Of a DNA stretch of 34,044 nucleotides, positions 5,037 through 20,655 are shown piece after piece; positions within the stretch are counted from its first letter, which is position 1, and the number at the start of each line of letters is the position of its first letter. Location: contig CAYUCQ010000002.1 in the NCBI GenBank assembly GCA_964443535.1, positions 1 to 34,044 on the forward strand, read 5' to 3'. This DNA is from Candidatus Woesearchaeota archaeon. Lineage in GTDB: Archaea; Nanobdellota; Nanobdellia; Pacearchaeales; GW2011-AR1. A program made the position numbers and the translations under genes. The notes beneath the pieces were generated by a model. The model made no database searches. It worked only from the letters and a program-made list of their open reading frames with translations, and had not been told where the DNA came from.

Positions 5037-5126
5037 GCCTTCTTTTTTTAATATTGTAAGTAACTAAGCTTTAAAGAGCAAAGCAAGAATAGTTTATAAG
5101 TCTTATTGGTTAAAAAGTAAGTAACT

Positions 5127-8100
5127 CTACTTTTTTTCTTGCTTGGGTTTTTCTTTCACGACTGATTTTTCTTTTGCAACTATAATTTTAGTACTATGTA
5201 TGAATTTGCGCAATTCTTTTTCTTTGACTTTGAAAGGCGAGTGAAGCAAGGGCCTGAATTCAATAAAGTAAGGAGAGCCTTTATTGTAATCAGAGCACTC
5301 TACCATGCCTAATCCTGTAGACAATCTTGAAAGCAGAGTGCTTATCTTTGAGCTGTGCCTGTCTCTCGCTCTTTTAATGTCTCCCTCATATCTTGTTCTC
5401 ATCTGTATTTGAGTTCCTATATTTCCCCTTATAGCCCCTTTGAAGTCTGTCAGCACTTGAGAAATCATTAGCAATCCTATGCCCCATTTTCTAAACTCTC
5501 TGACTGCCTGCTCAAGCTTGACATAAGCTCTGCTGCCGCCATATTTAGGCAATAATCTATGAACTTCGTCAAGTACAATCAAATGCCTCAAAGAGCTGCT
5601 CTCTGACAATCTCGCCCTGTAAATTCTATCAAGACTATTTTCAATAAACATATCCAAGACTTTAGGAGACAATTTATCCAGCTTGAATATTGTTAATCCT
5701 GATTTCTTCAAATAATAAACAACATCCAAATTCATGGTGTTTTTATTAATTTCAATAACTCTGGCATTAAACGCCATTGGCTTGCTCAAGGAAAACTTCT
5801 TGTAAAGCGAGCGCATTCCTTTATCATTATTTTTTTCAAGGAAGCCTGTCCATTGTCCTGTAGGATCAAAAACAATAATGCTCTGTCCTGCTCTCTTCTT
5901 TAATAATTCCTCAACAGCAACCATTCCTGCAACAGTCTTTCCTGCGCCTGTTCCTCCTGCAATTAAAGTGTGCCTGTTCAACTGCGTATGGTCAAGATAA
6001 GTCTTGACTCCAGAGTCTGCAACATGCCCTACATAAGCGAAATGCGACTTAGGAAGCAAAGCAAAGTCCGGAAATACATATATGCTCTTCTTCTTCATTT
6101 CTTCTACTTTTTTCTCAAACAACCTGCGCCTCAAATAAGCAAAATAATAAATTAATATTATAACTAATATAACAACAAACAAGCCTGCCAAAATAAAAGG
6201 AAGATAAACAACAGAAAAACTATTTGCTAAAAAACTGGAAAGCTTCCCAAACCCGCTTATGAAAGGGCTAAATAGCTGGCCTCTTCCAACTTTGAATGCC
6301 TGCTTAATCAGCACAACACTTTCAGAATCGTAGGATGCGCTTACAATCAATTCATAATCCCCAAAATTAACATTATTTGGAATATTCAGCTTTTTTTCCA
6401 GCGATAAAGAATCTTCAATTTTCAAATTCTCTGTTTCGCTTGAAACTATATTGCCTTCATTATCAACAATCACATAGAGAAATTCCACATCATAACTATC
6501 AAGTCTGCCAAGATTAAAAACAGACATTTTGAACTCCAGCAAATCCCCTGGAAGAAGAACATATTTTTCAATAATCGCCTCCCCATTTAATAATTTCTCT
6601 TCCAAGCCCTTGACTATAATTCTTACTGGAAGAACATAAGCTGCTTCATTAGCACTCACACCAGAGCCTGCGACAGAAGTGACAAATCCGTTCTCTAATA
6701 TATTTTCGCCATCTTCAGCATCCTCTCCAAAGAAATATATATTTCCAACATAAACACCCTTATCTAATCCAAATATTCTGATTCTAACATCTCTTGTCTG
6801 CAATGCTGGTATTTCCACACTATTATTTACAGAAATTATATTAGCCAAGGATTTATCAATTAAAACATCTATCTTCGTCAAAATATTTATCTTTAAATCG
6901 TTTTCATCCAGGCTTGTAATAAGAATGTTTTCAAAAACTTCTTCTCCGATATTCATCACTCTTTCTATAGTGTTTACGCTAACATGAAAATTTCCTTTTT
7001 CAAGAACAAGCTTGGGCTTAGCCACAGAGGTCGTTCCGCTACCACTGCTCCCGCTAGAGCTGCTGCTCGTGCTAGCAGCAACAGCAGTAGAAATGCTAAA
7101 TGTCCTGCTATGAGTATAATTCTTATTTCCCATAGTGTCATTTGCATAAACACTAAGAGTATAACTGCCGTCGGCTATGCTGGAATTAGTGCGATTAAAC
7201 ACTGCCCCGAACAAGCTTGTATGATCAGCGCTATAAAACATGCTAAAATTATTTATCCCTCCATTTAGGCTATATTGCACGCTTCCATTCTCATTTAAAG
7301 AGACATTAATATTAACAGAAGAGGCGCCAATGCTTTGCCCATCTGTAGGAGCATTTATAGTAACTATAGGCGCAATACTATCGTTATTAAAACTAAATAT
7401 CAAATTTCTATTAGTAGTCATATTCCATGATTGAGATAATACTTCTCCAGGCAAAGTAGCATTAAATGTATAATTAGAATAATAATTAGTTTCTACTCCT
7501 CCGCTGTCATTTTGCGTGTATTCCAGCAATGCTTGTTTCACAATTCTTCCATCGCTTCCTGTTAAGACAGAAAATCGCACGAAATTATTAATGTCAAAAG
7601 CGCTTACATTCGCATTGGGTGCTGCAGAATTGTTTGCATAGCTTGCATTGACTTCCAAATGCCAGTGCACATTTAAAGTTCCATTAGCTCCTGCATTCCA
7701 TGTTTTGTCACTAAATGTAACATTTGTAAGATTCCAAATACCTCCATTTGCAGCGCCTGCCACAAGAAAATCATCTGCACTTGAAGACAATGAGCTATCA
7801 CTAAAACTAAAATTATTATTGTTTCCTGAAATATAAATATTACTAGTACCAACAGCACCGCCTCTTATAACATGGTTGCTAAAACTATTATTGTTAGTGC
7901 CTGTATTCTCGCCAAAAAGAACACCTACGCCATTAGCACCTATATTATGAATAAAATTGCCTATAAATTGATTATTTAAAGATCTAGCCAGATTAACGCC
8001 ATTGCCGCTGCCAAAAGCAGTAAGATTATTATGATATATTCTATTATTAAAAGCGGTAGTAGAGTCTAACTCTATCACATGCGAAGATGAACCATAAGTT

Positions 8101-10037
8101 GAGATGTTATTATGACTAATGTTATTATTAGAACTCGCGCCAGAAATAAGAATACCGTCTGTGCTTGAGCCACTGGTTACAATTCTATTATGTATTACAG
8201 TATTATTGCTTGAAGAATCAAATATCAATCCTCTCGTAGCAGTAACATTAATAAAATTACTAATTATCATGTTACTCGATGATAAAAAATAAATGCCTGC
8301 ATTGCCTGCGCCTGTTCCGAAACTTAATATAGTGTTATTAGTTATATTTGTATACCTTGTAGCAAGGTTATCACTTATACCGACCGAGTTAGTCCCATTA
8401 ACTATTATAGTATTATTAAATATAGTAGTATTGAACGCGTTTGATAAGAAAATAGCATCGTCTGTATTTCCTGTAGTATTTCCTTCAAAGATAACAAGAT
8501 CTCTTATCATGCTAAAGTTTGCCGCAGTAACATATATTGCATAGGATGATTCAGAAGAATTAGTTCCGTTAATAGAATAGTTTATTGTATATCCCTGCCC
8601 ATTAAGAGTTATATTGTTAGCAGTTATATTAAAGCAAGTTCCGCTGCTTGAATTTACATCTTGTGTTAATGTATAAATTGAATTTGAAGTATTAAGGACC
8701 TGGCATGAGGTAACGCTAGGGTCAAATATATAATCAAAATCAACATCTCCTCCTCTAACTCTTAAATCAAAAGTATCCTGGCTGCTCATCAAATCATTCA
8801 ATAAAACCCTATATCTATCATCTGCAAATACTCCCCTGAATTCTGCAATCATATCATCTCCATTTTCCTCGTAAACTTCAATATCTGCGCTAGAACTGCT
8901 TCTCGCGAAGATAGTAATATCTTTGTTTGTAGTTAAATTAGTCTCAAAACTAATTCTAATATAATGTCCGTCAGGAATAGTTGCATAATCTCCATCTTTT
9001 GCTCTTATTTTTTCATAAACATCTTCAACAAAAACCTTATTTTCATCAAGATGCTCTGCATCAGTTATCAAAATTATCTCAAATGTCTGCTCACTCAAAT
9101 GAGGAACTATCCATGCTATATAATCATAAATTCCATCTGCGTCATTATCAAGAATATTTTCAGCAGGAATATATTTGCTTTCCTCTTTCCAATAAATTCT
9201 TACGCTTTCCGAATCACTAATGCCTATCTCTTCAGAAAGTTCTGTAAATGCAAGAACATTATCATAATGAATCTCGTCAGGCCCGATAATCTTTACTCGC
9301 TTTCCGTTCTCTAAATCTTCTTCAATAGAATAAGGTGCTTCAGTGTAATACTCTATTTCAACTTCAGATACAGGCTCCCTGACATCAAAATGAGTAACCT
9401 CCTGTTCAGTCGTTTCTTCAGAAACAGCAAGTCCTGTGAATCTCAAAAATCCCCTGCCAAAGCCCTGTTTATTTTCGTAAGAAGTATCAACAAAAACATT
9501 GCCTTCGTCATCAGTCAAAGTTTCATTTATTAATACATTAATTTCTTCATCAACTTGCTTAATATGAACAACAGATAAATTCTTTGCTATTAAAGGAATC
9601 GCGATTGAAAGATTTGAAGCTTTGGAAAGCACAATCTTTTTATTCCATTTTACAGGCATTCCAAGAATCGCCCCGTATTGAGATGTTTTTATATTGGCAT
9701 TAACTCCAGACTTATCATCAAAAACATCTATCTCTTTTATTAGAACATTATTTTCAATATAATCTAAAGTATTATCCCCATTTATCCCAATTTTTTCAGT
9801 TTTTTCAACAACAACACTGCCAGTTATTTCAAAAGGTGTGGCAAAAAGCAAAAGTAGGACAATGAAAAAGAGGCATAGGGTAAAAATAAGGAAAAATATA
9901 TTTTTCCTTTCATGAAAATATCCCTTCTTAGGCTGTCCAAGATAACTTGTAACAACTTTTCCATCTATCCTCTTATTCTCATACAAGTAAGGCCCGAATA
10001 CCTTCCCTCCTTTTTTTATATATTTCTCATAAACCAA
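5127..10037 (-). CDS. Giant surface beta-helix protein fused to a C-terminal HerA/FtsK-like (DUF87-type) P-loop ATPase
   Basis: 1636 aa, TTG start. N-terminal TM, beta-helix, Ser-rich linker, second TM followed by RRR, then RHTLIAGGTGAGKT (Walker A), VFDPTGQW, LIVLDEVHR (Walker B), REFRKWGIGLLMISQ. Confidence 0.85.
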   Translation of the reverse strand: MVYEKYIKKGGKVFGPYLYENKRIDGKVVTSYLGQPKKGYFHERKNIFFLIFTLCLFFIVLLLLFATPFEITGSVVVEKTEKIGINGDNTLDYIENNVLIKEIDVFDDKSGVNANIKTSQYGAILGMPVKWNKKIVLSKASNLSIAIPLIAKNLSVVHIKQVDEEINVLINETLTDDEGNVFVDTSYENKQGFGRGFLRFTGLAVSEETTEQEVTHFDVREPVSEVEIEYYTEAPYSIEEDLENGKRVKIIGPDEIHYDNVLAFTELSEEIGISDSESVRIYWKEESKYIPAENILDNDADGIYDYIAWIVPHLSEQTFEIILITDAEHLDENKVFVEDVYEKIRAKDGDYATIPDGHYIRISFETNLTTNKDITIFARSSSSADIEVYEENGDDMIAEFRGVFADDRYRVLLNDLMSSQDTFDLRVRGGDVDFDYIFDPSVTSCQVLNTSNSIYTLTQDVNSSSGTCFNITANNITLNGQGYTINYSINGTNSSESSYAIYVTAANFSMIRDLVIFEGNTTGNTDDAIFLSNAFNTTIFNNTIIVNGTNSVGISDNLATRYTNITNNTILSFGTGAGNAGIYFLSSSNMIISNFINVTATRGLIFDSSSNNTVIHNRIVTSGSSTDGILISGASSNNNISHNNISTYGSSSHVIELDSTTAFNNRIYHNNLTAFGSGNGVNLARSLNNQFIGNFIHNIGANGVGVLFGENTGTNNNSFSNHVIRGGAVGTSNIYISGNNNNFSFSDSSLSSSADDFLVAGAANGGIWNLTNVTFSDKTWNAGANGTLNVHWHLEVNASYANNSAAPNANVSAFDINNFVRFSVLTGSDGRIVKQALLEYTQNDSGGVETNYYSNYTFNATLPGEVLSQSWNMTTNRNLIFSFNNDSIAPIVTINAPTDGQSIGASSVNINVSLNENGSVQYSLNGGINNFSMFYSADHTSLFGAVFNRTNSSIADGSYTLSVYANDTMGNKNYTHSRTFSISTAVAASTSSSSSGSSGSGTTSVAKPKLVLEKGNFHVSVNTIERVMNIGEEVFENILITSLDENDLKINILTKIDVLIDKSLANIISVNNSVEIPALQTRDVRIRIFGLDKGVYVGNIYFFGEDAEDGENILENGFVTSVAGSGVSANEAAYVLPVRIIVKGLEEKLLNGEAIIEKYVLLPGDLLEFKMSVFNLGRLDSYDVEFLYVIVDNEGNIVSSETENLKIEDSLSLEKKLNIPNNVNFGDYELIVSASYDSESVVLIKQAFKVGRGQLFSPFISGFGKLSSFLANSFSVVYLPFILAGLFVVILVIILIYYFAYLRRRLFEKKVEEMKKKSIYVFPDFALLPKSHFAYVGHVADSGVKTYLDHTQLNRHTLIAGGTGAGKTVAGMVAVEELLKKRAGQSIIVFDPTGQWTGFLEKNNDKGMRSLYKKFSLSKPMAFNARVIEINKNTMNLDVVYYLKKSGLTIFKLDKLSPKVLDMFIENSLDRIYRARLSESSSLRHLIVLDEVHRLLPKYGGSRAYVKLEQAVREFRKWGIGLLMISQVLTDFKGAIRGNIGTQIQMRTRYEGDIKRARDRHSSKISTLLSRLSTGLGMVECSDYNKGSPYFIEFRPLLHSPFKVKEKELRKFIHSTKIIVAKEKSVVKEKPKQEKK

Positions 10038-10178
10038 ATTCGTAGGCTAACCTCTCTTTTAATGAAGGACAATAAGCAAAAAGACATTTATAAGTTTTGC
10101 TATATGTGGGTTAAAAGCCAAAATATAGAATTTTAGTAAAAGTCTTTCTGCTAAAAAAGCTCAATCTATATCCTGCAC

Positions 10179-10193
10179 AAGAAGCTTTAAAAA
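10179..10193 (+). promoter_or_regulatory. BRE/TATA promoter of the tRNA-Glu 5' half
   Basis: AAGAAGC-TTTAAAAA; TATA starts 31 nt before G1. Confidence 0.6.
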
Positions 10194-10216
10194 AGATGCA
10201 TCCTATCTATAAAAAT

Positions 10217-10254
10217 GCCTCTGTAGTCTAGTGGTCAAGGACACGGCCCTTTCG
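10217..10254 (+). tRNA. tRNA-Glu(UUC) 5' half (positions 1-37) of a split or disrupted gene
   Basis: GCCTCTG-TA-GTCT-AGTGGTCA-AGGAC-A-CGGCC-CT-TTC-G. No T-arm follows. The acceptor strand pairs with CAGGGGC at 16303-16309. Confidence 0.85.
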
Positions 10255-10257
10255 CGG
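10246..10257 (+). repeat. Left copy of the 12-bp core direct repeat (attL-like)
   Basis: GCCCTTTCGCGG, identical to 16267-16278 and spanning the 7-nt anticodon loop. Confidence 0.85.
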
Positions 10258-10271
10258 GGGAGAACAAAATT

Positions 10272-10324
10272 CCCCGTCTTTGAAGGGCGGAGAAACCAAG
10301 GCGAAAAGACCTTAAAGGGTGGAG
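10272..10324. repeat. Two imperfect 21-bp palindromes of consensus CTCCRCCCTT-N-AAGGGYGGAG at the left island end
   Basis: 10272-10292 CCCCGTCTTTGAAGGGCGGAG; 10304-10324 AAAAGACCTTAAAGGGTGGAG (left arm degenerate). Confidence 0.7.
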
Positions 10325-10340
10325 AGCATAGAAAAAACAT

Positions 10341-10441
10341 GCCCGATTAGTCTAGTGGTCAAGGACGCGGCCCTTTCGAGATAGTTTCGAAAGAAAGATC
10401 AAAGAACGGCCGAAACCCGGGTTCGAATCCCGGATCGGGCA
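10341..10441 (+). tRNA. Complete tRNA-Glu(UUC) with a 28-nt BHB intron at 37/38 (10379-10406)
   Basis: Acceptor GCCCGAT/ATCGGGC, anticodon TTC at 10375-10377, T-arm CCGGG-TTCGAAT-CCCGG. BHB: helix CTTT/AAAG, bulges CG|A and AA|C, outer helix GAT/ATC. Followed by a T6 tract. Confidence 0.95.
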
Positions 10442-10457
10442 TTTTTCTATTTCTAGA

Positions 10458-10754
10458 TTAAATAGAAATCCGATAATTCATTATATAATCCCATCCCTTG
10501 ACCACAGCGATTATCAGAATAACTGCGAGCAAGCCACCTCCGAAAATAGTGACAATTCCTATAATAATTTTAAAAGGAGTTGGTATCGCTTCGTCCACTA
10601 TTTTTTCTGCTGCATCTTCAGTAACTTCTTTTAATACTTCTGGGTTAGTGGGATCTTTCATAACTTGTGTAATAACTGAAACAGCCCATAAAAGAAAGAG
10701 AATTGATCCTATTGCTGTCAAGATTCCACCGATAGTGATTGCTTTCTTTACCAT
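10458..10754 (-). CDS. Small membrane protein with two TM segments, unknown function
   Basis: 98 aa, two hydrophobic segments flanking an acidic helix. Confidence 0.7.
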   Translation of the reverse strand: MVKKAITIGGILTAIGSILFLLWAVSVITQVMKDPTNPEVLKEVTEDAAEKIVDEAIPTPFKIIIGIVTIFGGGLLAVILIIAVVKGWDYIMNYRISI

Positions 10755-10840
10755 CTTATAATTTTGTTATAATAAGTAGTATCTAAACATTATTGTGATA
10801 AAACCAATAGATATAAATTGTTGAAAATTACTAGAAAGCT

Positions 10841-11212
10841 ATGAAATTCAAAGAGGTACCAAAAGATAAAGTAGAAATTATCGGCTCAATTATAAACGGG
10901 TCTCCAAATAGCGTAAATGGAAGTCCTTGGCTCTCGGTTTATCCATGTGATCCACAAGATATTGTCGACAACCCTGTTCTTTTAAATAAATCAGTCGCGG
11001 CAGGCATTGTTGCCAGCGGAGCCATTGTTCTAGGTTTACCTATTCCAATTTATTCTTATGATATAGTTAGGATGGATGGAAGTATTTTCGATATAGACAG
11101 ACATCTCCTTTCAACCTCTGGTTCGGTTATATTAAGAAGAAGAGAAATAGATAAAAGCCTTGCAGAACATCATTCTTCAGATATTCCAGATTATTACAAA
11201 TTTTCAAAATAG
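10841..11212 (+). CDS. Hypothetical protein
   Basis: 123 aa ATG-led ORF with TATA-like ATATAAAT about 30 nt upstream. Confidence 0.6.
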   Translation: MKFKEVPKDKVEIIGSIINGSPNSVNGSPWLSVYPCDPQDIVDNPVLLNKSVAAGIVASGAIVLGLPIPIYSYDIVRMDGSIFDIDRHLLSTSGSVILRRREIDKSLAEHHSSDIPDYYKFSK

Positions 11213-11260
11213 TTATGAGCAATAAGCAATAATTATAAGGCTATATAAATTAAAATTTAT

Positions 11261-12454
11261 ATGGTAGGATGCGATTATTGCGAAAAGCCAACTGACGGTT
11301 ATGCTCACAAATGCAAGTTCTGTGGGCAAGTTCATTGTTCGGAACATTTGTTGCCAGAGTCGCATGATTGCAGGGGATTAGAATATCGCAAACAAAAAAA
11401 TTCTGAAAGATGGGGCAGGGCAGTAACCGGCCATTCTATTAACACTAAATATAATATTGATGAAGAGTCCGTTTATGAAAAGCCAACAAAAAACGTTAAA
11501 CAACACCATAAAAAACAGAAGTTTTCTGATAAGTTAAAGGGCTATGCTATCACAAAATATGAAAGTCTAAGATATTGGTTAAGAAAGAGAGAGCATCATC
11601 GATATGATTTTGAAGGGAGATCAAGCTATCTAATTACTACGATTCTAATTCTTGCGACGGCTATTGTAGGTGTTGCTATCTTCTACTCTAATGCAGAAAA
11701 ATTGAATGAGATTGACTTCTGGATCATAAAACTCGGAGGAGTATTAATCTTAGTTTCTCTGTTTTTTGCAATTAAATATGGGTGGAGATTTGGCAAGGAA
11801 ATGATTAATATCTTTAAGAGACAAAAAAATTGGTTTAGATATTTAGTTATAATTTTGATAGTTATTTTACTTTGGCAAGGTTATACGCATAAGGACAATG
11901 TTTTGAATCCTGTCTTTGAAACTTATAATAAAACTAACTTTACCTTGCTGATGCCTATCGGGATAAGTAATTTTAGCTTAGGCGAGAGTAATAGCGATGT
12001 TTCGTTTGATTATTCATCAGGCCAAGATAGTAAAAAAACATTCGATTTTGATATTCCTTCATCTAGTAAATCAGCTGGAGATCTGGCTGAAATAGAAAGT
12101 AGAATCTTAGTGTTAGTAAATGAAGAAAGAGCCAGAAATGGAGCTCATGCCTTAAGGACTAATAACAATCTTGATAACCTTGCACAGAAGCATAGTGATA
12201 GGATGATATCAGAAGATTTCTTTGAACATAGTCATTACAACGTAGGAGAAAATATTGGAGAAGTTCCTCTCCACTATAATGTTTTAGGATGTGGTTCAAC
12301 TTACTCAAATGATGATATGGCTGAATGTATGGTTACAGGTTGGATAGAAAGTCCAGGGCATCACATGAATATGATAGACAGAAGTTATGGGTCAACAGGT
12401 ATTGGCGTTGCGTGCGATAGCTCAAAATGTAGGGGCACGCAAATGTTCAGTTAG
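11261..12454 (+). CDS. AN1-type zinc finger + 3 TM + CAP (SCP/PR-1) domain protein
   Basis: N-terminal CDYC...CKFCGQVHCSEHLLPESHDC. C-terminal CAP motifs LVNEERARNG, AQKHSDRM, GENI, GWIESPGHHMNM, GIGV. Confidence 0.85.
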   Translation: MVGCDYCEKPTDGYAHKCKFCGQVHCSEHLLPESHDCRGLEYRKQKNSERWGRAVTGHSINTKYNIDEESVYEKPTKNVKQHHKKQKFSDKLKGYAITKYESLRYWLRKREHHRYDFEGRSSYLITTILILATAIVGVAIFYSNAEKLNEIDFWIIKLGGVLILVSLFFAIKYGWRFGKEMINIFKRQKNWFRYLVIILIVILLWQGYTHKDNVLNPVFETYNKTNFTLLMPIGISNFSLGESNSDVSFDYSSGQDSKKTFDFDIPSSSKSAGDLAEIESRILVLVNEERARNGAHALRTNNNLDNLAQKHSDRMISEDFFEHSHYNVGENIGEVPLHYNVLGCGSTYSNDDMAECMVTGWIESPGHHMNMIDRSYGSTGIGVACDSSKCRGTQMFS

Positions 12455-13610
12455 TTCCCTTACAACTATGTTCGTGCTCAAGTAACTGATTGAATTGTTC
12501 AAATTGCTCTCCGCAATGTTTACACTTTCCTTCTCTTGCGACGGCATCAGTATAGAGAAAATTAAAGTGCATTTCTTCTGTCAAAATAGAAGTCATCTGT
12601 TTCTCTAATTGTTCGTAGTGATCTATTGCTGAAAGAGCGTCTTTTTTGTCTTTTGATTTAAGAGTTAGGTTAGATAGGCCAATCGCCCTTAGTCTTTTAC
12701 TCAACGATGGATGAGATGAAAAGAATTTAGTCTTTTCATTGTCTACAACCGTTTGTTTAATATTTTTATGATCTTCTTTCATGTAGGCTTTGTGAATGCT
12801 GTCATATACATTGACAAACTGTCTTCCTTCTGAAAGAAAGTGGGCAATCGAGTTATATCCTACTTCTTCGAAATATAAAGTATAAGCAGAGTAATTTACT
12901 AAACCTCTACCAAAAATTTCTTTACTTGAAAAATGAGTTGCGATATAATCGGCCCTATATTCTATCTGTCTAGAATAAATAGAAATGATAACTCTGAAAA
13001 TAAAAGAGTAGGATTTTGCAAATCCGCTTATGAAAAGTCCAATAACTGCAAGTTCGGCCAAAGGGATTACATTCCACCATGCTTTTCCAAAATTTGAAGA
13101 TTTTTCTAAGGATATCTGTATTTTAGCTAATAGGGATCCAACGATGGTATCATTTCCGTATAAATGTCCAAATTCGTGAGCAAGAATTGATTTAAATTCT
13201 TCAGAAGAAATCGATCTTAATCCTACAATTCCAATACCCAATTTTCTTTTAAAGAGGCCAGTAACATAAATTTCATCTGATGGCAAAACGTGAATTTCAT
13301 CCGGCATTCTTACTCCGATATTTTGAGAAACTTCTCTAATCGCTTTGATCAACTTAGGAAATTTATCCTGATGAATTGCATAACCTCTATCTTTAGATTT
13401 AACTGAAATAGCAACAATAAGAGGAATTACGCCTAATCCTACAAATATCCACCCAAAGATATTTGTTCCAGAAAATTCCCACCATTCACCGACAAAAATG
13501 CCTATGCGGAAGAGGGCATAATATACTGAAATAAAAAGAGCAACAGTAATCAATAAGCTAAGATAAATTCTAAACTGAATCGTAAAAGGTATTTTTATCT
13601 TTCTTTGCAT
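12447..13610 (-). CDS. M48 (HtpX/Ste24-like) membrane zinc metalloprotease with C-terminal C2H2-like zinc finger
   Basis: SILAHEFGH, YSRQIEYRAD, SSHPSLSKRL, TM helices; C-terminal CKHC...HEHSC. Confidence 0.85.
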   Translation of the reverse strand: MQRKIKIPFTIQFRIYLSLLITVALFISVYYALFRIGIFVGEWWEFSGTNIFGWIFVGLGVIPLIVAISVKSKDRGYAIHQDKFPKLIKAIREVSQNIGVRMPDEIHVLPSDEIYVTGLFKRKLGIGIVGLRSISSEEFKSILAHEFGHLYGNDTIVGSLLAKIQISLEKSSNFGKAWWNVIPLAELAVIGLFISGFAKSYSFIFRVIISIYSRQIEYRADYIATHFSSKEIFGRGLVNYSAYTLYFEEVGYNSIAHFLSEGRQFVNVYDSIHKAYMKEDHKNIKQTVVDNEKTKFFSSHPSLSKRLRAIGLSNLTLKSKDKKDALSAIDHYEQLEKQMTSILTEEMHFNFLYTDAVAREGKCKHCGEQFEQFNQLLEHEHSCKGTN

Positions 13611-13725
13611 AGTAATAAGTCTTTTTTTAATTATAAATATCTTATCTTTATTTTTACAGGTTATCGCTCGTATTAATACTCTGGCAACAAAGCATTTTTA
13701 ACATTCAAATTCCAATTTTATAGGT

Positions 13726-14358
13726 ATGCAATCAACACATTCAATAACAATCCAACAAAGAGGAGATAAAATACATAGATACGAAAGCAAAAATCAGAAT
13801 GATTTTGTGATTGAAGAAGACATTGCCGGATTAGACGCAAATGTTCTTGTTGATTTAGCTGAAAGTGAAGAATTTAAGCATAATATTAGAGAACAAATAA
13901 GTATTGGCGTACGGAAATTTTATACAACAAATGTGGCGCTTGGAGAAGCAAGACACGTTTTAGTGAAGAAAAGAAAATATAAACATCAAGATGCAACAGA
14001 CAAACTCCAAAATATTCTTAAAGAGTTTAACATAACTAAGATAAACCATAATAGGGAGAGCAATGATTTAGGAAATAATTGGGTAGATATTGTGAAGAAA
14101 CAAACACACATCAAAAAATTTAGAACCTTCCCGACCGATTGCAGAATTCTCGCCAATTTATTCAAACAAGCAAAAGTTAACCTCTATTTTACAGAAGATC
14201 AAGATATAGAAAAAGCACTAAATATTCTAAAGGTTCCGATTAGAATAAGAATTGTAGGAGAGGCTTCACAGCTAGATAGTTTTGAAATTAAAAGATTCTT
14301 TCAGGAGCAATTTAAGGAAAAGCGCAAAGCTTTTCATAAATCTCGGAAGCGTCGTTAA
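13726..14358 (+). CDS. PIN-domain (VapC-like) nuclease
   Basis: Acidic PIN residues in LDANVLVD, ALGEARH, PTDCRIL, FTEDQD. Confidence 0.7.
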   Translation: MQSTHSITIQQRGDKIHRYESKNQNDFVIEEDIAGLDANVLVDLAESEEFKHNIREQISIGVRKFYTTNVALGEARHVLVKKRKYKHQDATDKLQNILKEFNITKINHNRESNDLGNNWVDIVKKQTHIKKFRTFPTDCRILANLFKQAKVNLYFTEDQDIEKALNILKVPIRIRIVGEASQLDSFEIKRFFQEQFKEKRKAFHKSRKRR

Positions 14359-14617
14359 TATTTCCGTTTGATTTCTTTAGAGCTTCTTGCCATAATTCGT
14401 TTCTTACTTCCTTAACTTCATCCATCGTTTTTACTCTTTGTTTCTTAAGAACTGAAAGAGCGTATGCTGCTTCAAATTTTGAAGTGCTCATTTGACTATT
14501 CATTGCCATTTGAGCTTTAGTTGCTAACTCTTGAAATTGCTGTTTAAATCTTTCTCCAGTTAGCTCTATGTTTTTAAATATATTATCTGATTCTTTCATT
14601 TTCTCTGTGTCTTGCAT
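14312..14617 (-). CDS. Hypothetical helical protein, convergent with and overlapping the PIN gene
   Basis: 101 aa ATG-led ORF; 47-bp 3' overlap with the PIN ORF. Confidence 0.6.
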   Translation of the reverse strand: MQDTEKMKESDNIFKNIELTGERFKQQFQELATKAQMAMNSQMSTSKFEAAYALSVLKKQRVKTMDEVKEVRNELWQEALKKSNGNINDASEIYEKLCAFP

Positions 14618-14821
14618 TTTATTTCCAGTTAAATTTAGGGCTTTACAAGGTTTAAAAAACTACCTAAAGAACAGAAAGTAACACAATTATTCAAATAAAC
14701 TAAGTCCTTTTTCATCATGATAACTACTAGTAAAAGTACTATATAAATCTTATTTGTATTGACAACTACAAATCAGTGTCGAAACCAAAAACTATTTCAA
14801 GTTTAAATTATAAGTCATATA

Positions 14822-14974
14822 ATGATAGCAAACTGTGCTGGTTGCGAGTATGGGTTTTGGGAAGCCTATGAATGGCAAACGAGAGGTTTTGATGTCATAC
14901 TGGATGGAATGGATGAGAGAAAATATGTCTTCATTAGAGTTCTTGACAAAAGCGGAAGAATAGTCTTGGAGTAA
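14822..14974 (+). CDS. Small 50-aa CxxC protein, possibly first gene of the WYL operon
   Basis: Manual translation MIANCAGCEYGFWEAYEWQTRGFDVILDGMDERKYVFIRVLDKSGRIVLE. Stop lies 2 nt before the next ATG, and its 3' end supplies a GGAG RBS. Confidence 0.5.
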   Translation: MIANCAGCEYGFWEAYEWQTRGFDVILDGMDERKYVFIRVLDKSGRIVLE

Positions 14975-14976
14975 AA

Positions 14977-15216
14977 ATGAGCGAAAAATGCAAGAATTGC
15001 CGTAGAGAGTTTAATTCTGGTATATGGATTTCTCCGCAATTTGCAGATGAAAAAGCCTTATTATTCTGTTCAGAAAAATGTAAAAAAGAATATCTCAAAA
15101 TGAAGCTTGAAAGAATAAAGGTTAATTATCCAAAGTTTCATGAAAAAATAATGCAAACCTCTAAAAATTGGAAAGAAGGTGTATTTTGGAAAGGGAAGGA
15201 TAAAAATGAAAGATAA
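14977..15216 (+). CDS. Small zinc-finger protein (TRASH/MYM-like CxxC...FCSxxC)
   Basis: CKNC...FCSEKC, 79 aa. Confidence 0.65.
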   Translation: MSEKCKNCRREFNSGIWISPQFADEKALLFCSEKCKKEYLKMKLERIKVNYPKFHEKIMQTSKNWKEGVFWKGKDKNER

Positions 15217-15715
15217 ATTCCAATTAACAAAAGAAGAAACAGAAGCCCTATATACAATAATTAAGGAGTACGAAAAGGACGCTCCCGAAAGCGACAAAGA
15301 ATATTATGACGATTACTATGATGAATACAAGACTCCGATAAAAAAGAGAACAATAAAGTCTATTCTAAATAAAATTACTAATTTATTGCCTGAAGAACAA
15401 AAAGAAGAAATAGACAAGGATTTTCTGAGGCAAAAATATCACACATTTAATAACGAAGTCAATGAAAGAGTTTATTCTATAATTGAAAAGGCATTTAATC
15501 AATTAAAGACCATTGAAATAGAGTATTTTAATATGGAAAGCGCAAAGTTCAGCAAAAGAAAGCTTGATGTTTATCATAAATCAAGAAAGTATGTTATTGG
15601 ATACTGTCATTTAAGAAAGGACATAAGAAAATTCAGAACACATAGAATCGCCTCTGCCAAATTGACAAGAGATAGCTATAAAATTCCGGAGGATTTTGAT
15701 AAGAATAGGTATTAA
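15206..15715 (+). CDS. WYL-domain protein without an obvious HTH
   Basis: IEIEYFN...KRKLDVY...YVIGYCHLRKDIRKFRTHRI. Start moved to the ATG at 15206, which follows a GGAAGG RBS. Confidence 0.85.
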   Translation: MKDKFQLTKEETEALYTIIKEYEKDAPESDKEYYDDYYDEYKTPIKKRTIKSILNKITNLLPEEQKEEIDKDFLRQKYHTFNNEVNERVYSIIEKAFNQLKTIEIEYFNMESAKFSKRKLDVYHKSRKYVIGYCHLRKDIRKFRTHRIASAKLTRDSYKIPEDFDKNRY

Positions 15716-15716
15716 A

Positions 15717-16076
15717 ATGGCAAACGATAACGGCTTAGTTGATGAGCTTGAAAAGCTTCAGACATTAAAGAAAGATATAGAACGGAAAGAAGAAGAACTA
15801 AAGAGCAAAATCATTGAGCTAGCACAAGAGAAAAATACAGATTTGTTATTTGGTTCACATAAAAAGTGTTCAGTGAAGGAATACATTAAAGTGGTTTATC
15901 CAGAAGATAAGACTCTTTTTGTCAATTTAATTAAAAATAAGGGACTTTATGACAGATTCTCCTCACTTAACTATCTTAAATTAAGTCCTGCAATTATTAA
16001 AGGCGAGATTGATAAAGATATAGCAAGTTTAACTAGACAAGAAAAAGCCTTCAGGCTTTCCTTGAAAGAGATATAG
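15717..16076 (+). CDS. Coiled-coil hypothetical protein
   Basis: MANDNGLVDELEKLQ..., ATG 1 nt after the WYL stop. From memory it resembles C-terminal extensions of some RecB-like PD-(D/E)xK proteins (unverified). Confidence 0.65.
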   Translation: MANDNGLVDELEKLQTLKKDIERKEEELKSKIIELAQEKNTDLLFGSHKKCSVKEYIKVVYPEDKTLFVNLIKNKGLYDRFSSLNYLKLSPAIIKGEIDKDIASLTRQEKAFRLSLKEI

Positions 16077-16195
16077 AAGAACTAAAAGGAAAATTATATT
16101 AACCTCCTCGTCTTCAACTGATCATGCTCACCAAAAAGTGGGGGAAAAGACTAAAGAAATAGGAATGTCCGATTGACCGCAAAATGACGCAAGTG

Positions 16196-16216
16196 CTCCA
16201 CCCTTCAAGGGCGGAG
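16196..16216. repeat. 21-bp palindrome at the right island end
   Basis: CTCCACCCTT-C-AAGGGCGGAG (one mismatch). A further half-site CTCCGCCCTT lies at 16263-16272. Confidence 0.8.
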
Positions 16217-16266
16217 AAAAGGGCGTGCTCAGCCCAAATAGGGAGGAGATGCAGGTATAGGGCTCC

Positions 16267-16278
16267 GCCCTTTCGCGG
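16267..16278 (+). repeat. Right copy of the 12-bp core direct repeat (attR-like)
   Basis: GCCCTTTCGCGG. Confidence 0.85.
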
Positions 16279-16310
16279 CCGTAACCCGGGTTCAAATCCC
16301 GGCAGGGGCA
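16276..16310 (+). tRNA. tRNA-Glu 3' half (positions 38-73)
   Basis: C-GGCCG-TAAC-CCGGG-TTCAAAT-CCCGG-CAGGGGC-A. No D-arm upstream; complements the 5' half at 10217. Confidence 0.85.
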
Positions 16311-16366
16311 TTCATTAAATCAAAGATTTCATACCACTGACGGTATGAGAACAGAGTTTGAATAAA

Positions 16367-16379
16367 CCGGCAGGGGCAT
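16367..16379 (+). repeat. 13-bp duplication of the tRNA-Glu 3' end
   Basis: CCGGCAGGGGCAT, identical to 16299-16311. Confidence 0.75.
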
Positions 16380-16429
16380 ATCACGCCACTCATAGAAAGA
16401 GATAAATAGTTTAATTATCACGATATTTT

Positions 16430-17371
16430 ATGAATTCCCAAGAAATCTTGCTAAGAGAATTGATAAAGAACGGCTATTCCATAGAAAACGGCATAAAAGT
16501 CTGGGACTTGTCAAAAAGATGCTTCAGATATGTCAATTTAGACATGGCAAAAGCATTTCTCAAACTGCAAGAGCATCCAAGATATAAAGCAACAATTAAT
16601 GACATAGAAATTAACCTTTTAAAAGAACACGTCCCAAAACTGCAAATTAATGCAAGAAAAGATCAATTTAATCTTATAGACATGAGCTGTACAGAAGGCA
16701 CAAAAGCAAAAGTAATAATTAACTCTCTTCCTAAAGACATAAACTTAAGATATTGCCCTGTAAGTGTCAGTGAATATTTAACAGAATTGGCATTAAAAAA
16801 CATAAAAAAAGAAAAGCTTCAAAATGTAGTTGACTATGCTCCAAAAGTTACAGAAAATTTCCTAAATTTAGATAACATTGGAGCTGTCTTGAGAAACAAC
16901 AAATATCAGAAAAATATAATCCTGCTTCTCAATTCATTTTTAGCAAGCTTTGAAATTAATGACTATTTGTTTAGGCTAAGCCAGTCAATGCTTCCAGGAG
17001 ATATTTTAATAATAGGAAATGGCATAAGAACAGGTCCAAGATTTGCAAACTTAGAAACATATCAGCATCCAATATTTAATGACTGGCTGATTCACATACC
17101 TCTTCAGCTTGGCTTTAAGAAAGATGAAGTAGAGTATAATGCGCGCTTTACAAACAATAGGCTTGAAGTATATTACAAGATAAAAAAAGACAAGACATTC
17201 CTATATGAGAAAAGAAAAATAGAGCTAAGAAAAAACGACGAGATAATTGTAGCATTCCAGCACAAGCTTTACGAAAATGAATTAAAAGAATTCTGCGACA
17301 TGTATTTTGACAGCGTAGAACTAAAGAAAGATTCTGAAAGTGAATATGCTATTGTCTTATGCAAAAGATAA
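16430..17371 (+). CDS. EgtD-like (histidine N-alpha-methyltransferase family) SAM-fold protein
   Basis: 313 aa. YCPVSVSEYL, LLLNSFLASFE and SMLPGDILIIG fit the family pattern; motif I is degenerate (DMSCTEGTK). Confidence 0.6.
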   Translation: MNSQEILLRELIKNGYSIENGIKVWDLSKRCFRYVNLDMAKAFLKLQEHPRYKATINDIEINLLKEHVPKLQINARKDQFNLIDMSCTEGTKAKVIINSLPKDINLRYCPVSVSEYLTELALKNIKKEKLQNVVDYAPKVTENFLNLDNIGAVLRNNKYQKNIILLLNSFLASFEINDYLFRLSQSMLPGDILIIGNGIRTGPRFANLETYQHPIFNDWLIHIPLQLGFKKDEVEYNARFTNNRLEVYYKIKKDKTFLYEKRKIELRKNDEIIVAFQHKLYENELKEFCDMYFDSVELKKDSESEYAIVLCKR

Positions 17372-17397
17372 TTTTTTCCGTGTGTGTTCAAATCCAA

Positions 17398-17520
17398 TGA
17401 TCCTGCCCGGATTTGAACCGGGGACCCCCGCCTTTCTTAGCTTTTCAGCGTGAAAATAAAGCTCTAACGAGCCATAATCTTATAAGAGCGGTGCTCTAAA
17501 CCGGGCTGAGCTACAGGATC
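17398..17520 (-). tRNA. tRNA-Ile(UAU) with a 47-nt intron at 37/38 (17434-17480)
   Basis: Acceptor GATCCTG/CAGGATC-A, D-arm GCTC/GAGC, CCGCT-CT-TAT-A|intron|A-GGCGG, T-arm CCCGG-TTCAAAT-CCGGG; central helix CTTA/TAAG. Confidence 0.92.
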
Positions 17521-17561
17521 GTAAATACACATTAAAACCAATTTATAAATCTGTGGGATAA

Positions 17562-18086
17562 TTAATTAAAACATTCTTGAGTTTTATTATTGTTATAAAT
17601 ACAAAAGTCTATTGTTTGATTGAAGTTTCTTTGTTTTTTGCAGGCATGGCATTCACAATTAAAAGTAATACTATGTTTTCCTATAGGCACTAACTCAGGT
17701 TTATCACAATGATCAGTTTGAGAACTACATAAATTATATGTAATTCTTAGTCTTCTGTATTCATAACTTTCTTTAGATACCTCTATTGGACTTACGCCAT
17801 TATCTTCATTTAGTATCGTTCCTGTAAAATTATCATTTGTTGTCTGAGAGCAAAAGACATTTGCATCAATATCTCCACTATTTCTAAATATTATCTTTGA
17901 AAAATCTCCTTTAGTATCACTTGTACGTACAAGTAGAAATGAATAAATTTCAATCTTGTCTTGGGAAATTATTTCTATTTTAGCATCTCTTCCTGGATAA
18001 CTAATACTGGGGTATCTTGCTATAAATATTGTTAATACTATTGTCACCACTATTGCTATTATCGCCCATTTTATTTCCTGCTTCAT
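17562..18086 (-). CDS. Membrane-anchored Cys-containing hypothetical protein
   Basis: 174 aa, N-terminal TM, several cysteines. Confidence 0.65.
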   Translation of the reverse strand: MKQEIKWAIIAIVVTIVLTIFIARYPSISYPGRDAKIEIISQDKIEIYSFLLVRTSDTKGDFSKIIFRNSGDIDANVFCSQTTNDNFTGTILNEDNGVSPIEVSKESYEYRRLRITYNLCSSQTDHCDKPELVPIGKHSITFNCECHACKKQRNFNQTIDFCIYNNNKTQECFN

Positions 18087-18137
18087 GCTAATAGATAAAA
18101 TGGCAATCTTTTAATATATTGGCTTTTATCCAATATC

Positions 18138-19313
18138 ATGTTAATCGGTCTTGTAGGCAAGCCAAATTCAGGGAAATCAACATTCTTCAAGGCAGCAACC
18201 TTGTCAGATATACTTATAGCAAACTATCCATTTGCCACAATAAAGCCAAATCATGGCATTGCATACATAAAGATAAAAGACCTTGCTGCGGAATTCAACA
18301 AGCAAAGCAATCCAAGAGAAGGATATGTAAAATCAGGCTTTAGATTTGTCCCATTTGAACTAATGGATGTAGCAGGCCTTGTAGAAGGAGCAAGTGAAGG
18401 AAGAGGATTAGGCAATGAATTCCTGAATGACCTTGCAGGAGCAGATGCATTTATACATATAATTGACTTATCTGGAGAAACAGATGGAGAAGGAAAGCCA
18501 ACAAATAATTACTATCCTGGAAAAGACATAAAAATAATTGAAAACGAATTAGATTTATGGTACAAGGGAATTCTAATGAAAGTATGGAAATCTCTTTCAA
18601 GAACATTAGAAATGCAAAAAGCAAATTTCGCAGAATCAATAGCAAAGCAATTTTCAGGACTAAAAGTAAAGCCAGATGATGTCAAGTCAATAATACTAAA
18701 ATCCAATTTAAATTATGAAAAACCATCTTCATGGAATGATAAAGAAATCTTTACTTTCGCTCAATTATTAAGAAAAAATACAAAGCCGACAATAATCGCG
18801 GCTAATAAAATAGATCGCCCAAATTCAAGAGAAAATCTTGAAAAAATAAAAGAAGAATTTGACTATCCAATAATACAATGCTTTGCAGATGGCGAGCTAG
18901 CATTGAGAGAAGCAGACAAGGCAGGATTAATAGAATACACTCCAGGCGAATCAACATTCAAAGTTAAGTCTCAACTAACAGAAAAGCAAAAAGAAGCATT
19001 GAACAAGATAAAGAAGATAATTGAAGAAAACAAAGGCACAGGTGTTCAGGAAATATTAAATCATATTGTATTGGACATAATGGGATATATTGCTATATAT
19101 CCCGCGGGCTCAAAACTTGAAGACAGCAAAGGCAATGTTCTGCCAGATTGCTATCTGATGAAAAAAGGCTCAACAGCCCTTGACTTTGCATATCGCCTTC
19201 ATACAGATATAGGCAAGGGTTTTATAAAAGCAATTGACGTAAGAACAAAGAGAGCTGTAGGAAAAGAGTATTTGCTCAAGCATCTTGATGGCTTGGAAAT
19301 TGTAACAAGATGA
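18138..19313 (+). CDS. ychF: YchF/Ola1 Obg-family ATPase/GTPase with TGS domain
   Basis: GKPNSGKST, NYPFATI, DVAGLV, ANKID; C-terminal GSTALDFAYRLHTDIG. Confidence 0.93.
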   Translation: MLIGLVGKPNSGKSTFFKAATLSDILIANYPFATIKPNHGIAYIKIKDLAAEFNKQSNPREGYVKSGFRFVPFELMDVAGLVEGASEGRGLGNEFLNDLAGADAFIHIIDLSGETDGEGKPTNNYYPGKDIKIIENELDLWYKGILMKVWKSLSRTLEMQKANFAESIAKQFSGLKVKPDDVKSIILKSNLNYEKPSSWNDKEIFTFAQLLRKNTKPTIIAANKIDRPNSRENLEKIKEEFDYPIIQCFADGELALREADKAGLIEYTPGESTFKVKSQLTEKQKEALNKIKKIIEENKGTGVQEILNHIVLDIMGYIAIYPAGSKLEDSKGNVLPDCYLMKKGSTALDFAYRLHTDIGKGFIKAIDVRTKRAVGKEYLLKHLDGLEIVTR

Positions 19314-19543
19314 TTATTCATGTAAAAGTAATTCCTAATTCAAAAGAAGAAGAGTTAAAAGAAATTTCAAAACTAGAATACACTGCAAAAATAAAAGAAC
19401 CTGCAGAAAAGAACAGGGCAAATATTTCTTTAACAAATTTATTAGCCAAATCTCTAAAAATTCCAGCAAAAAATATTAAAATAAAAAACCCTTTGTCAAG
19501 AAAGAAAGTTATAGACATTATTAATCAACAGCAACAATTTTAA
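19310..19543 (+). CDS. DUF167 (YggU-like) protein
   Basis: HVKVIPNSK...EPAEKNRAN...LAK...SRKK. Confidence 0.85.
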   Translation: MIIHVKVIPNSKEEELKEISKLEYTAKIKEPAEKNRANISLTNLLAKSLKIPAKNIKIKNPLSRKKVIDIINQQQQF

Positions 19544-19565
19544 ACCTAAGTTATCTCACCACTCA

Positions 19566-19940
19566 ATGAAATATGTAGATGCCCCTGATTTGAAAGATAG
19601 AGTTAATGAAATAGCTCAAATTCTTAATATGGATCATATTGACTTAAACAGAGTAGAATGCACAAGAAGCTTTGGCTCTTCAACAAAAAGCACTATTGCA
19701 AGATGCCATGCTCTTGGAAAGCTGATGCAAAAAGCAATGAAATCAAAGGCTTTTTACGCAATAGAATTCCTGGAAAAATTTGACAAGATGAGCAAATCTG
19801 ATCAGGATAAAGTAATAATTCACGAACTAATGCATATTCCAAAGAGTTTTGGAGGCGGATTTAGGCAGCATGATTTTGTATGCAGGAAAAACGTGGAAAT
19901 CATGTATGAACAATTTACAAACTTCAAAAAGCCTTTCTAA
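19566..19940 (+). CDS. Putative zincin metallopeptidase
   Basis: VIIHELMHIP HExxH motif. Confidence 0.75.
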   Translation: MKYVDAPDLKDRVNEIAQILNMDHIDLNRVECTRSFGSSTKSTIARCHALGKLMQKAMKSKAFYAIEFLEKFDKMSKSDQDKVIIHELMHIPKSFGGGFRQHDFVCRKNVEIMYEQFTNFKKPF

Positions 19941-19944
19941 AGCC

Positions 19945-20577
19945 TTAGCGCAAATATTTATCTTCCCATTCTCTAATAGCTTTCTCCTCTATATCAATTT
20001 TAGACTCTTTTCTAGCGCGCTTAAAGTCCCTGAAAAGCAGCCCAAAAATAAAGCCAAAGAACATTCCTGATAAATGGGCAATATTTCCAGTATTGTCAAT
20101 CGGATTTCCTATCAAAAAGCCAATTGCGCCAAGCAAGTCGCCAATTCCCCATAAAACTCCTGCGATGAATATTGGCATAGGCATTCCAAAAGCCCAGACA
20201 ATAAGCATTGGCCTTATTGCAACCAATGCTCCAATAATTCCAAAAATTGCACCGCTTGCTCCAAGTGAGCTTGAATAAAAATTAACAGAAATTAAATTAG
20301 CCAATATTCCGCTAATAAAGAATATCAATAAGAATTTCCTGCTTCCAATTAGCTTCTCCAAAATGCTTCCAAAGAGCGCAAGTGCGAACAAATTATAAGC
20401 TAAATGCAGCAAGCTTCCATGCAAAAAAATAGCGCTGAAAAATCGCCACATTTCCTTAAAAGCCATTTCATTTAAAACAAGCAATTCAGTGAATGCAGGA
20501 ACAAAAACCTGAATTGCAAAAACTACAACAATGAGCAGGCATAACTTAAAAGCATAAAACTTAAATCTTGTTTTCAT
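19945..20577 (-). CDS. Rhomboid intramembrane serine protease
   Basis: WRFFSAIFLHG..HL..N, GASGAIFG, AHLSG. Start placed at MKTRFK because the upstream ATG lies inside a repeat element. Confidence 0.92.
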   Translation of the reverse strand: MKTRFKFYAFKLCLLIVVVFAIQVFVPAFTELLVLNEMAFKEMWRFFSAIFLHGSLLHLAYNLFALALFGSILEKLIGSRKFLLIFFISGILANLISVNFYSSSLGASGAIFGIIGALVAIRPMLIVWAFGMPMPIFIAGVLWGIGDLLGAIGFLIGNPIDNTGNIAHLSGMFFGFIFGLLFRDFKRARKESKIDIEEKAIREWEDKYLR

Positions 20578-20580
20578 CAA

Positions 20581-20655
20581 ATCAAAAAGTCCTTGTAACA
20601 TTATAAGACTTTTGGATGCTCAAGATGCGATAAAAAGTGACAAGCATCTTGACAT
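20581..20655. repeat. Double-hairpin interspersed element, copy 1
   Basis: ATCAAAAAGTC-loop-GACTTTTGGAT followed by ATG(C)TCAAGATGC-loop-GCATCTTGACAT. Confidence 0.85.

Follow-up and report, generated by a model that had tools for sequence, protein, structure and literature searches.

The stretch of DNA analysed here, called the window below, comprises 34,044 nt from the genome of a Candidatus Woesearchaeota archaeon. This source genome is designated G000 (609,508 bases, 85% complete, about 33% G+C); G424, G466, G003 and similar labels denote comparison genomes. Within the window, a tRNA-Glu(UUC) gene of the host is broken into two halves, which lie 6 kb apart at the ends of an island carrying a second tRNA-Glu(UUC) gene, here called Glu*, and a set of cargo genes (Table 1). 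Copies of a 10-mer, CTCCRCCCTT or its complement, are gathered at both island ends. Our subject is the nature of these repeats and of the gene that they accompany.

The two halves score 11.5 and 17.3 bits against the 29-bit cut-off of Rfam, so neither junction represents a full tRNA. Once joined by script, they are recognized by ARAGORN as a canonical 73-nt tRNA-Glu(ttc), and the same is true for the halves of a corresponding locus in G424, which belongs to another genus. Both gene pieces contain the 11-mer CCCTTTCGCGG (10247-10257 and 16268-16278), which equals positions 30-40 of tRNA-Glu(UUC) and has no further match at up to one mismatch. About 30 nt upstream of the 5' half lies a TTTAAAAAA box (10187-10195) that reads as a promoter. 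Glu* begins 86 bases after the 5' half, 85 bp from the core. Its 28-nt canonical intron (10379-10406) forms a bulge-helix-bulge with a 4/4 central helix, and a T-rich tract follows the gene. Among the 28 tRNA calls made by ARAGORN with introns allowed in this 85% complete genome, Glu* is the sole intact Glu(ttc). Because the element and the host have only 11 bp in common, the tRNA is not rebuilt by integration; if the element is fixed in place, the host would depend on its tRNA.

All five copies of the 10-mer in the window adjoin the 11-bp direct repeat. Such a number stands against 0.02 copies expected and was reached by none of 100 shuffles. The observation made in the initial annotation, which had seen the motif at five sites near the cores and nowhere else in the window, is confirmed. 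Nor is the motif scattered over the genome: of its seven matches in the G000 assembly, five lie at this locus and the remaining two on contigs C3 and C8. The copies were further said to form nested inverted repeats, and reading together with motif search finds both pairs (A1 with B1, A2 with B2) to be exact complements. Two 21-bp units had been put forward as members of one palindrome family. The unit at 16196-16216 is indeed a 10-1-10 palindrome with one mismatch (fold -11 kcal/mol, z -3.98), but that at 10272-10292 is much weaker, with 7/10 Watson-Crick pairs by reading. The excision junction rebuilt from the two ends does measure 21 bp, as stated there, but is better parsed as 7+7+7, i.e. 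the arm at 16263-16269, the anticodon loop and the arm at 10256-10262. The 10-mer itself consists of arm C and the first three bases of the loop. Arms C and C' are complementary at 6/7 positions in G000 and at 7/7 in G424. Position 10258 is a C in G424 and in contigs from three of the four groundwater and soil DNA runs compared, which suggests that other carriers of the left junction live in those communities. The hairpin that directly follows the core folds as RNA at -13.4 kcal/mol with z -2.62, while its counterpart in G424 (z 0.13) is no better than shuffles.

Table 1. Features of the split tRNA-Glu(UUC) locus and of the island ends (window coordinates)
Feature	Position	Strand	Remarks
Host tRNA-Glu(UUC) 5' half, positions 1-37	10217..10254	+	Rfam tRNA 11.5 bits alone
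Left anticodon-stem arm	10244-10248		
Left 11-bp repeat copy (common core)	10247..10257	+	Loop 7/7 identical in G424
Left 7-bp anticodon loop, presumed strand-exchange overlap	10249-10255		
Hairpin/palindrome with 7-bp stem directly after core	10255..10276	+	10255-10261 pairs with 10270-10276
Element-side core arm C' (GGGGGAG)	10256..10262	+	Inverted copy of arm C, 16263-16269
Motif copy A1	10283..10292	-	CTCCGCCCTT on - strand; 34 bp from first base of overlap; 10/10 identical in G424, distance to overlap unchanged
Motif copy A2	10315..10324	-	CTCCACCCTT on - strand; 32 bp after A1, 16 bp before Glu*; 9/10 identical in G424, spacing unchanged
Element-borne tRNA-Glu(UUC), Glu*	10341..10441	+	Rfam tRNA 57.3 bits
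Island cargo	10458..16130	.	Small ORFs, AN1-zinc-finger/CAP protein, M48 peptidase, PIN, WYL, others
Conserved outer right arm	16137..16195	+	Alignment with G424
Palindrome of B2 (16196-16205, +) and A1' (16207-16216, -)	16196..16216	.	Motif search and fold; B2 and A1' each 9/10 identical in G424; 74 bp from overlap in both genomes
Motif copy B1	16263..16272	+	Core arm C (16263-16269) and three overlap bases; 10/10 identical in G424; occurs also in G466 and metagenome contig L059
Right 11-bp repeat copy	16268..16278	+	Overlap 16270-16276; anticodon-stem arm 16277-16281
Host tRNA-Glu(UUC) 3' half, positions 38-73	16276..16310	+	Rfam partial match 17.3 bits

The same junctions are found in other genera. 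In scans of 401 genomes of the order and 401 of the family, the exact right junction occurred in two genomes of each sample. G424 was the single further exact match in the order; the rest were due either to chance or to anticodon arms that are intact but differ at 2-3 positions. A near-match in G347 proved to be a chance one, in coding DNA. The left-arm pattern was present in one of 21 genomes of G424's genus. Occurrence of the junctions is thus sporadic. The locus of G424 repeats the whole arrangement: a 5' half, a trailer with two 10-mers, a Glu* counterpart at the same place (without intron), about 5.7 kb of cargo, a leader with the palindrome and a third 10-mer, and a 3' half. Distances from the loop are common to both genomes, namely 34 and 66 bp on the left and 74, 63 and 7 bp on the right. 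In ungapped comparison, 47 of 50 positions of the 10-mers are identical, against 21 of 46 in the spacer between two of them.

In G424, the 6-kb insert encodes a 469-aa tyrosine integrase (Pfam Phage_integrase, 31 bits against a cut-off of 27.1; PHROG integrase, 3e-13) and also carries winged-helix open reading frames (ORFs). G466, a member of a third genus found in the family scan, shares the leader of G424; of its integrase, 350 aa are assembled, and over these the identity to the G424 protein is 96%. Its leader abuts a different host 3' half, and the left junction is absent from its assembly. On the groundwater metagenome contig L059, the same leader is joined to yet another 3' half. L059 was the only relevant locus among 38 obtained in a 19-mer metagenome scan (the other 37 were unrelated, with GC of 0.44-0.72). 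The 33 and 12 loci matched in viral contigs included none that is related, and a 15-mer scan of genome contigs returned at least 120 stretches, almost all of them from GC-rich bacteria. Relatives of the integrase occur in 123 of the 401 genomes of the order, several beside tRNA-Glu genes, and in none of the contigs of G000. Those closest to the G424 protein, in G029 (48% identity) and G151 (46%), have neither a tRNA nor matching repeats within 8 kb. At loci L241-L270, this presence in 123 of 401 genomes is seen to concern one family of tyrosine integrases of about 390 aa, often in multiple copies and often directly downstream of an intact tRNA-Glu gene.

Empty sites exist as well. In G364 and G292, genus-mates of G424, an intact tRNA-Glu lies between the same flanking genes. 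In G003, G004 and G008, which belong to the genus of G000, an intact tRNA-Glu(UUC) adjoins an orthologue of the methyltransferase gene at 16430-17371; the intron of the G003 gene was read by eye, as the search at the Rfam gathering threshold missed it. Coordinates suggest the same arrangement in G010, G025, G027 and G028. G001 and G002 were not accepted as clear empty sites, since they have a different tRNA-Glu(UUC) variant. Two ordinary intron-bearing tRNAs of G005 (Gln and Glu-CUC) account for its paired matches 700 bp apart, which were therefore rejected as a split gene, and additional 3'-half candidates on contigs C16 and C15 of G000 turned out to be exons of long-intron tRNAs.

Taken together, we consider it likely that the 10-mers are recombinase-recognition repeats in the attachment sites of an integrative element, a member of a family that uses a tyrosine integrase to enter the tRNA-Glu(UUC) anticodon loop. 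This rests on what is seen directly: the repeats, an architecture conserved across genera, empty sites, an integrase in relatives and a tRNA that integration does not restore. The marks of a tyrosine recombinase are there, that is, a short core, a 7-bp overlap enclosed by a dyad whose arms are 7 bp long, both occupied and empty sites, and near-identical elements across hosts. The 7-bp loop CTTTCGC would be the crossover region, although we infer the exact crossover points. The anticodon stem of the host would supply both arms of the chromosomal site, and the element would contribute a pair of inverted 7-bp arms (16263-16269 and 10256-10262). Additional copies, composed of one arm and the first three loop bases, are placed at fixed distances; on the left there are two in direct orientation, on the right two that are inverted to each other. 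Because they form conserved islands at fixed spacing in both arms, we read these extra copies as accessory (arm-type) sites, which the integrase would bind and which probably assemble the recombination complex. Integration would leave the 5' and 3' halves 6 kb apart with the tRNA not rebuilt, and the tRNA-Glu(UUC) that the element bears close to its left end would make up for the loss. The window element, with its unrelated cargo, would have lost the integrase or never had one, and is probably fixed in place. The split tRNA is then most likely a scar of the attachment site, compensated by the element-borne tRNA.

The initial annotation had suggested a recombinase acting in trans. That part stands in so far as the island is inserted, has the motifs at its ends and does not itself encode a recombinase, while the homologous elements in both G424 and G466 encode a tyrosine integrase and empty sites are found; what falls is the likeness to IS200/IS605 elements. 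Subterminal hairpins of a single-strand transposon of that type, mobilized by a Y1 transposase in trans, would explain the imperfect palindromes near both ends. IS200/IS605 elements are not known to produce a direct repeat or target duplication or to have inverted terminal repeats; they have subterminal hairpins. The present insert is bordered by an 11-bp direct repeat, has inverted arms and shows the dyad core that is the signature of tyrosine recombinases, and related copies carry a tyrosine integrase. Neither a Y1_Tnp (PF01797) nor a TnpB-type domain (PF07282) was found in G000, island included, at E up to 1, with controls detected. We regard such an origin of the repeats as highly improbable. 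The proposed search for recombinase genes yielded, apart from this absence of Y1 TnpA and TnpB, one partial PF00589 gene at the start of contig C11.

Several observations weigh against an integrative element with attachment sites of this kind. A Pfam scan took in 14 ORFs, of which 10 lie inside the island and the remainder are neighbours, and PHROGs were searched as well; no recombinase or transposase appeared among the 10 island ORFs. No homologue of the G424 integrase was found anywhere in G000 (85% complete), where the partial gene on C11 is the sole PF00589 match. Because the island cargo is not homologous to that of the G424 element, and because its CAP gene is chromosomal in G002, it may be that the interior of the island is not mobile DNA. 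In sequence, the accessory copies are like the core arm and do not follow a separate arm-type consensus, and core-like accessory copies are unusual for lambda-like systems. All five 10-mers are intact in a copy apparently devoid of integrase, and the outermost two vary in a complementary manner (T at 10320 and A at 16200); these two facts hint at selection for pairing. The tRNA of the genus-mates points away from the methyltransferase gene and the 3' half of the window towards it. The tRNA and the island are inverted relative to the neighbour gene when compared with G003, G004, G008 and G424, for which we find no explanation in simple integration. Finally, contigs from the four DNA runs, compared over 9800-16800, contained neither an excised circle nor an empty site of this strain, a result that is uninformative, as the bridging contigs are foreign. 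Contig joints that skip 6,021 bases (with sides of 30 nt at most) were rejected as excision products, since their flanks differ from the 5' half of the strain; the bridging contigs are intact tRNA-Glu genes of other organisms.

The order of genes around the locus is itself variable. The block of methyltransferase, tRNA, Obg-like GTPase and the next gene (16430-20619) has an inverted orientation in G424 (L239, 2311-6836) and lies across the split tRNA from its place in G000, and because of this difference between the two genomes the tRNA-Glu locus can be regarded as a hot spot of rearrangement. We could not derive the gene order of the window from the ancestral one by one integration and one inversion.

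A different possibility is that the two halves form a functional split tRNA. Each half would have its own transcript, the 10-mers and 7-bp arms would keep trailer and leader paired, the splicing endonuclease would cut and RtcB would ligate the pieces, as in Nanoarchaeum equitans; a working split gene would in that case have arisen from insertion of the element. The joined halves do give a canonical tRNA in both genomes, and EndA and RtcB are present in G000. Co-folding of the flanks yields a cloverleaf with helices in trans, and on either strand a distance of exactly 7 nt, the spacing of a bulge-helix-bulge, separates the arm helix from the anticodon stem (in G424, helix h has 6 bp and h' 7 bp). 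The difference between G000 and G424 at 10258 and 10273 is compensatory within the hairpin, the variants of A2 and B2 in G000 are complementary, and all five copies stay intact without an integrase. The helix that splicing would need is nevertheless missing. In the canonical 37/38 register, the central 4-bp helix pairs at 0/4 positions because both strands bear the same loop sequence. We enumerated all registers in which cutting of trailer and leader yields the mature tRNA, and a 4-bp helix with both flanking helices was found in none of the 13 (G000) or 14 (G424). With the same script, the true introns of Glu* and of the tRNA-Glu(CUC) on C16, used as controls, give 4/4 and both helices. Moreover, the G424 hairpin does not exceed its shuffles, the best leader folds differ between the two genomes, and only one endonuclease gene was found, of the short alpha type. 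An intact tRNA-Glu(UUC) stands right beside the 5' half in both genomes, and 96% integrase identity across two genera speaks for recent insertions, not for a maintained split gene. The pairing of RNA leader and trailer, which the initial annotation offered as its second explanation, is thus weakened by the lack of a bulge-helix-bulge, by unconserved folds and by the intact tRNA inside the element; we believe that a functional split gene is unlikely. Among the nine sequencing runs found, none listed as RNA contained the locus.

In a related scenario, insertion by an integrase into the anticodon loop would create in one step all that a split tRNA needs. The halves would keep or gain promoters, and the inverted core arms would become trailer and leader 7 nt from the anticodon stem. 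It is conceivable, if rather doubtful, that the integrase-less copy of the window is already trans-spliced by way of its extra 10-mers, and the locus would then be an intermediate in the origin of split tRNA genes, caught in the act.

The repeats might also serve mainly in expression, either as operators of an element regulator (e.g. a winged-helix protein) or within an RNA leader that controls processing of Glu*. By this account, Glu* is probably read from the host tRNA promoter when the element is integrated, and from a right-arm promoter when it is circular; an AT-rich, TATA-like stretch at about 16150-16161 may be such a promoter. By reading, the sequence between the 5' half and Glu* contains no stretch of at least five T, which makes co-transcription likely. 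In both genomes, a TTAAAG box situated about 26-30 nt ahead of Glu* overlaps with A2, the palindrome at 16196-16216 resembles the binding site of a dimer, and the G424 element does have winged-helix ORFs. On the other hand, the core arm at the crossover is one of the motif copies, the symmetric placement of the sites in the two attachment-site arms is not something that expression alone would call for, and the cargos of G000 and G424 have no regulator in common. We think it quite improbable that expression is the main role of the repeats, and return to attachment sites of a tyrosine integrase as the preferred explanation.

As for known systems, the locus looks like an archaeal variant of tRNA-dependent lysogeny. 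In mycobacteriophages such as Fionnbharth, according to excerpts of the original report, the core has 10 bp, the tRNA is not reconstructed and the phage brings a same-isotype tRNA (Guerrero-Bustamante and Hatfull 2024, PMC10865867). Shared with these actinobacteriophages, as far as the excerpts go, are the tyrosine integrase, the site inside a tRNA gene, the core of about 10 bp, the tRNA that is not rebuilt and putative accessory repeats flanking the core (PMC10865867). In contrast, our element of about 6 kb resides in an archaeal host with a tiny genome, and no virion or packaging family was seen by Pfam and PHROGs in the island cargo or in that of G424. Here the anticodon loop is the crossover, the replacement tRNA lies 85 bp from the core, the accessory repeats copy the core arm, and the window copy has no integrase. 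Among the papers listed for tRNA-dependent lysogeny, none was archaeal by title.

The anticodon loop and stem are a classical target of tyrosine recombinases, as stated in the available part of a 2021 review of the archaeal enzymes (PMC8371274). In that part, integration is described as restoring an uninterrupted tRNA (PMC8371274). With classical anticodon-loop integration (the sublocation class of Williams 2002, the SSV1 integrase), the present locus has in common the 7-bp loop overlap, the stem dyad and direct repeats at both ends; unlike here, where nothing is restored, the elements treated in that part of the review bring the tRNA's 3' part with them and re-form the gene (PMC8371274).

Split tRNA genes were reportedly described in Nanoarchaeum equitans by Randau in 2005. 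Excerpts of a later paper on split tRNAs of N. equitans and Desulfurococcales (Chan, Cozen and Lowe 2011, PMC3218864) show a similar picture of same-strand halves a few kb apart with the break at or near 37/38, GC-rich complementary flanks, one such tRNA per genome and intact orthologues in relatives. The present halves differ from those in having no bulge-helix-bulge, an 11-nt overlap and an intact adjacent isoacceptor, and in being the ends of an integrase element. In Caldiarchaeum subterraneum, a fragment of tRNA-Thr is parted from its gene by a recombinase-encoding insertion, which was proposed as a route to disrupted tRNA genes (Sugahara 2012, PMC3293823, in excerpts). Unlike here, an intact, intron-bearing tRNA is left at that junction, and the excerpts describe no defined core, repeats or replacement tRNA (PMC3293823).

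A few further features of the window and genome deserve mention. The last 13-14 bases of the tRNA-Glu gene recur tens of bases downstream, both in the window (16299-16311 and 16367-16379) and in G004 (L009, 1429-1442 and 1469-1482); these repeats resemble scars that previous integrations left at this end of the tRNA. On contig C36 of G000 (about 2700-2960), a unit of about 83 bp is repeated three times in tandem, and every unit includes the 3' end of the adjacent tRNA (C36:2886-2957, -) in inverted form. Several tRNAs of G000 carry long introns. They are canonical and unusually long in the tRNAs at C16:9054-9269, C15:2640-2790 and window 17398-17520, and reach 143 nt in tRNA-Glu(CUC). Default finders miss such genes: in the window, ARAGORN without the intron option calls one tRNA and Rfam three. 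The ORF of the splicing endonuclease (L049, C7:12115-12708) contains a run of masked bases, read as X, which hides its loop type. Upstream of the split gene, two giant paralogous ORFs occupy 279-5063 and 5127-10037 (-). The second encodes 1636 aa with beta-helix and Ig-like parts and a C-terminal HerA/FtsK-like ATPase, and giant-ORF homologues adjoin the tRNA-Glu locus in G008, G001 and G002.

If our assumptions are true, non-restoring integration combined with a replacement tRNA extends from actinobacteriophages to archaea. In this way, a host whose tRNA set is minimal could come to depend on a small element, which in the present case seems to have become fixed after loss of the integrase. 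The locus would also provide a testable example for the proposal, made in the excerpted work on split and disrupted tRNA genes, that mobile elements fragment tRNA genes and so lead to split tRNAs (PMC3218864, PMC3293823). It carries a warning, too: tRNA "halves" in small archaeal genomes may be scars of attachment sites and not working split genes.

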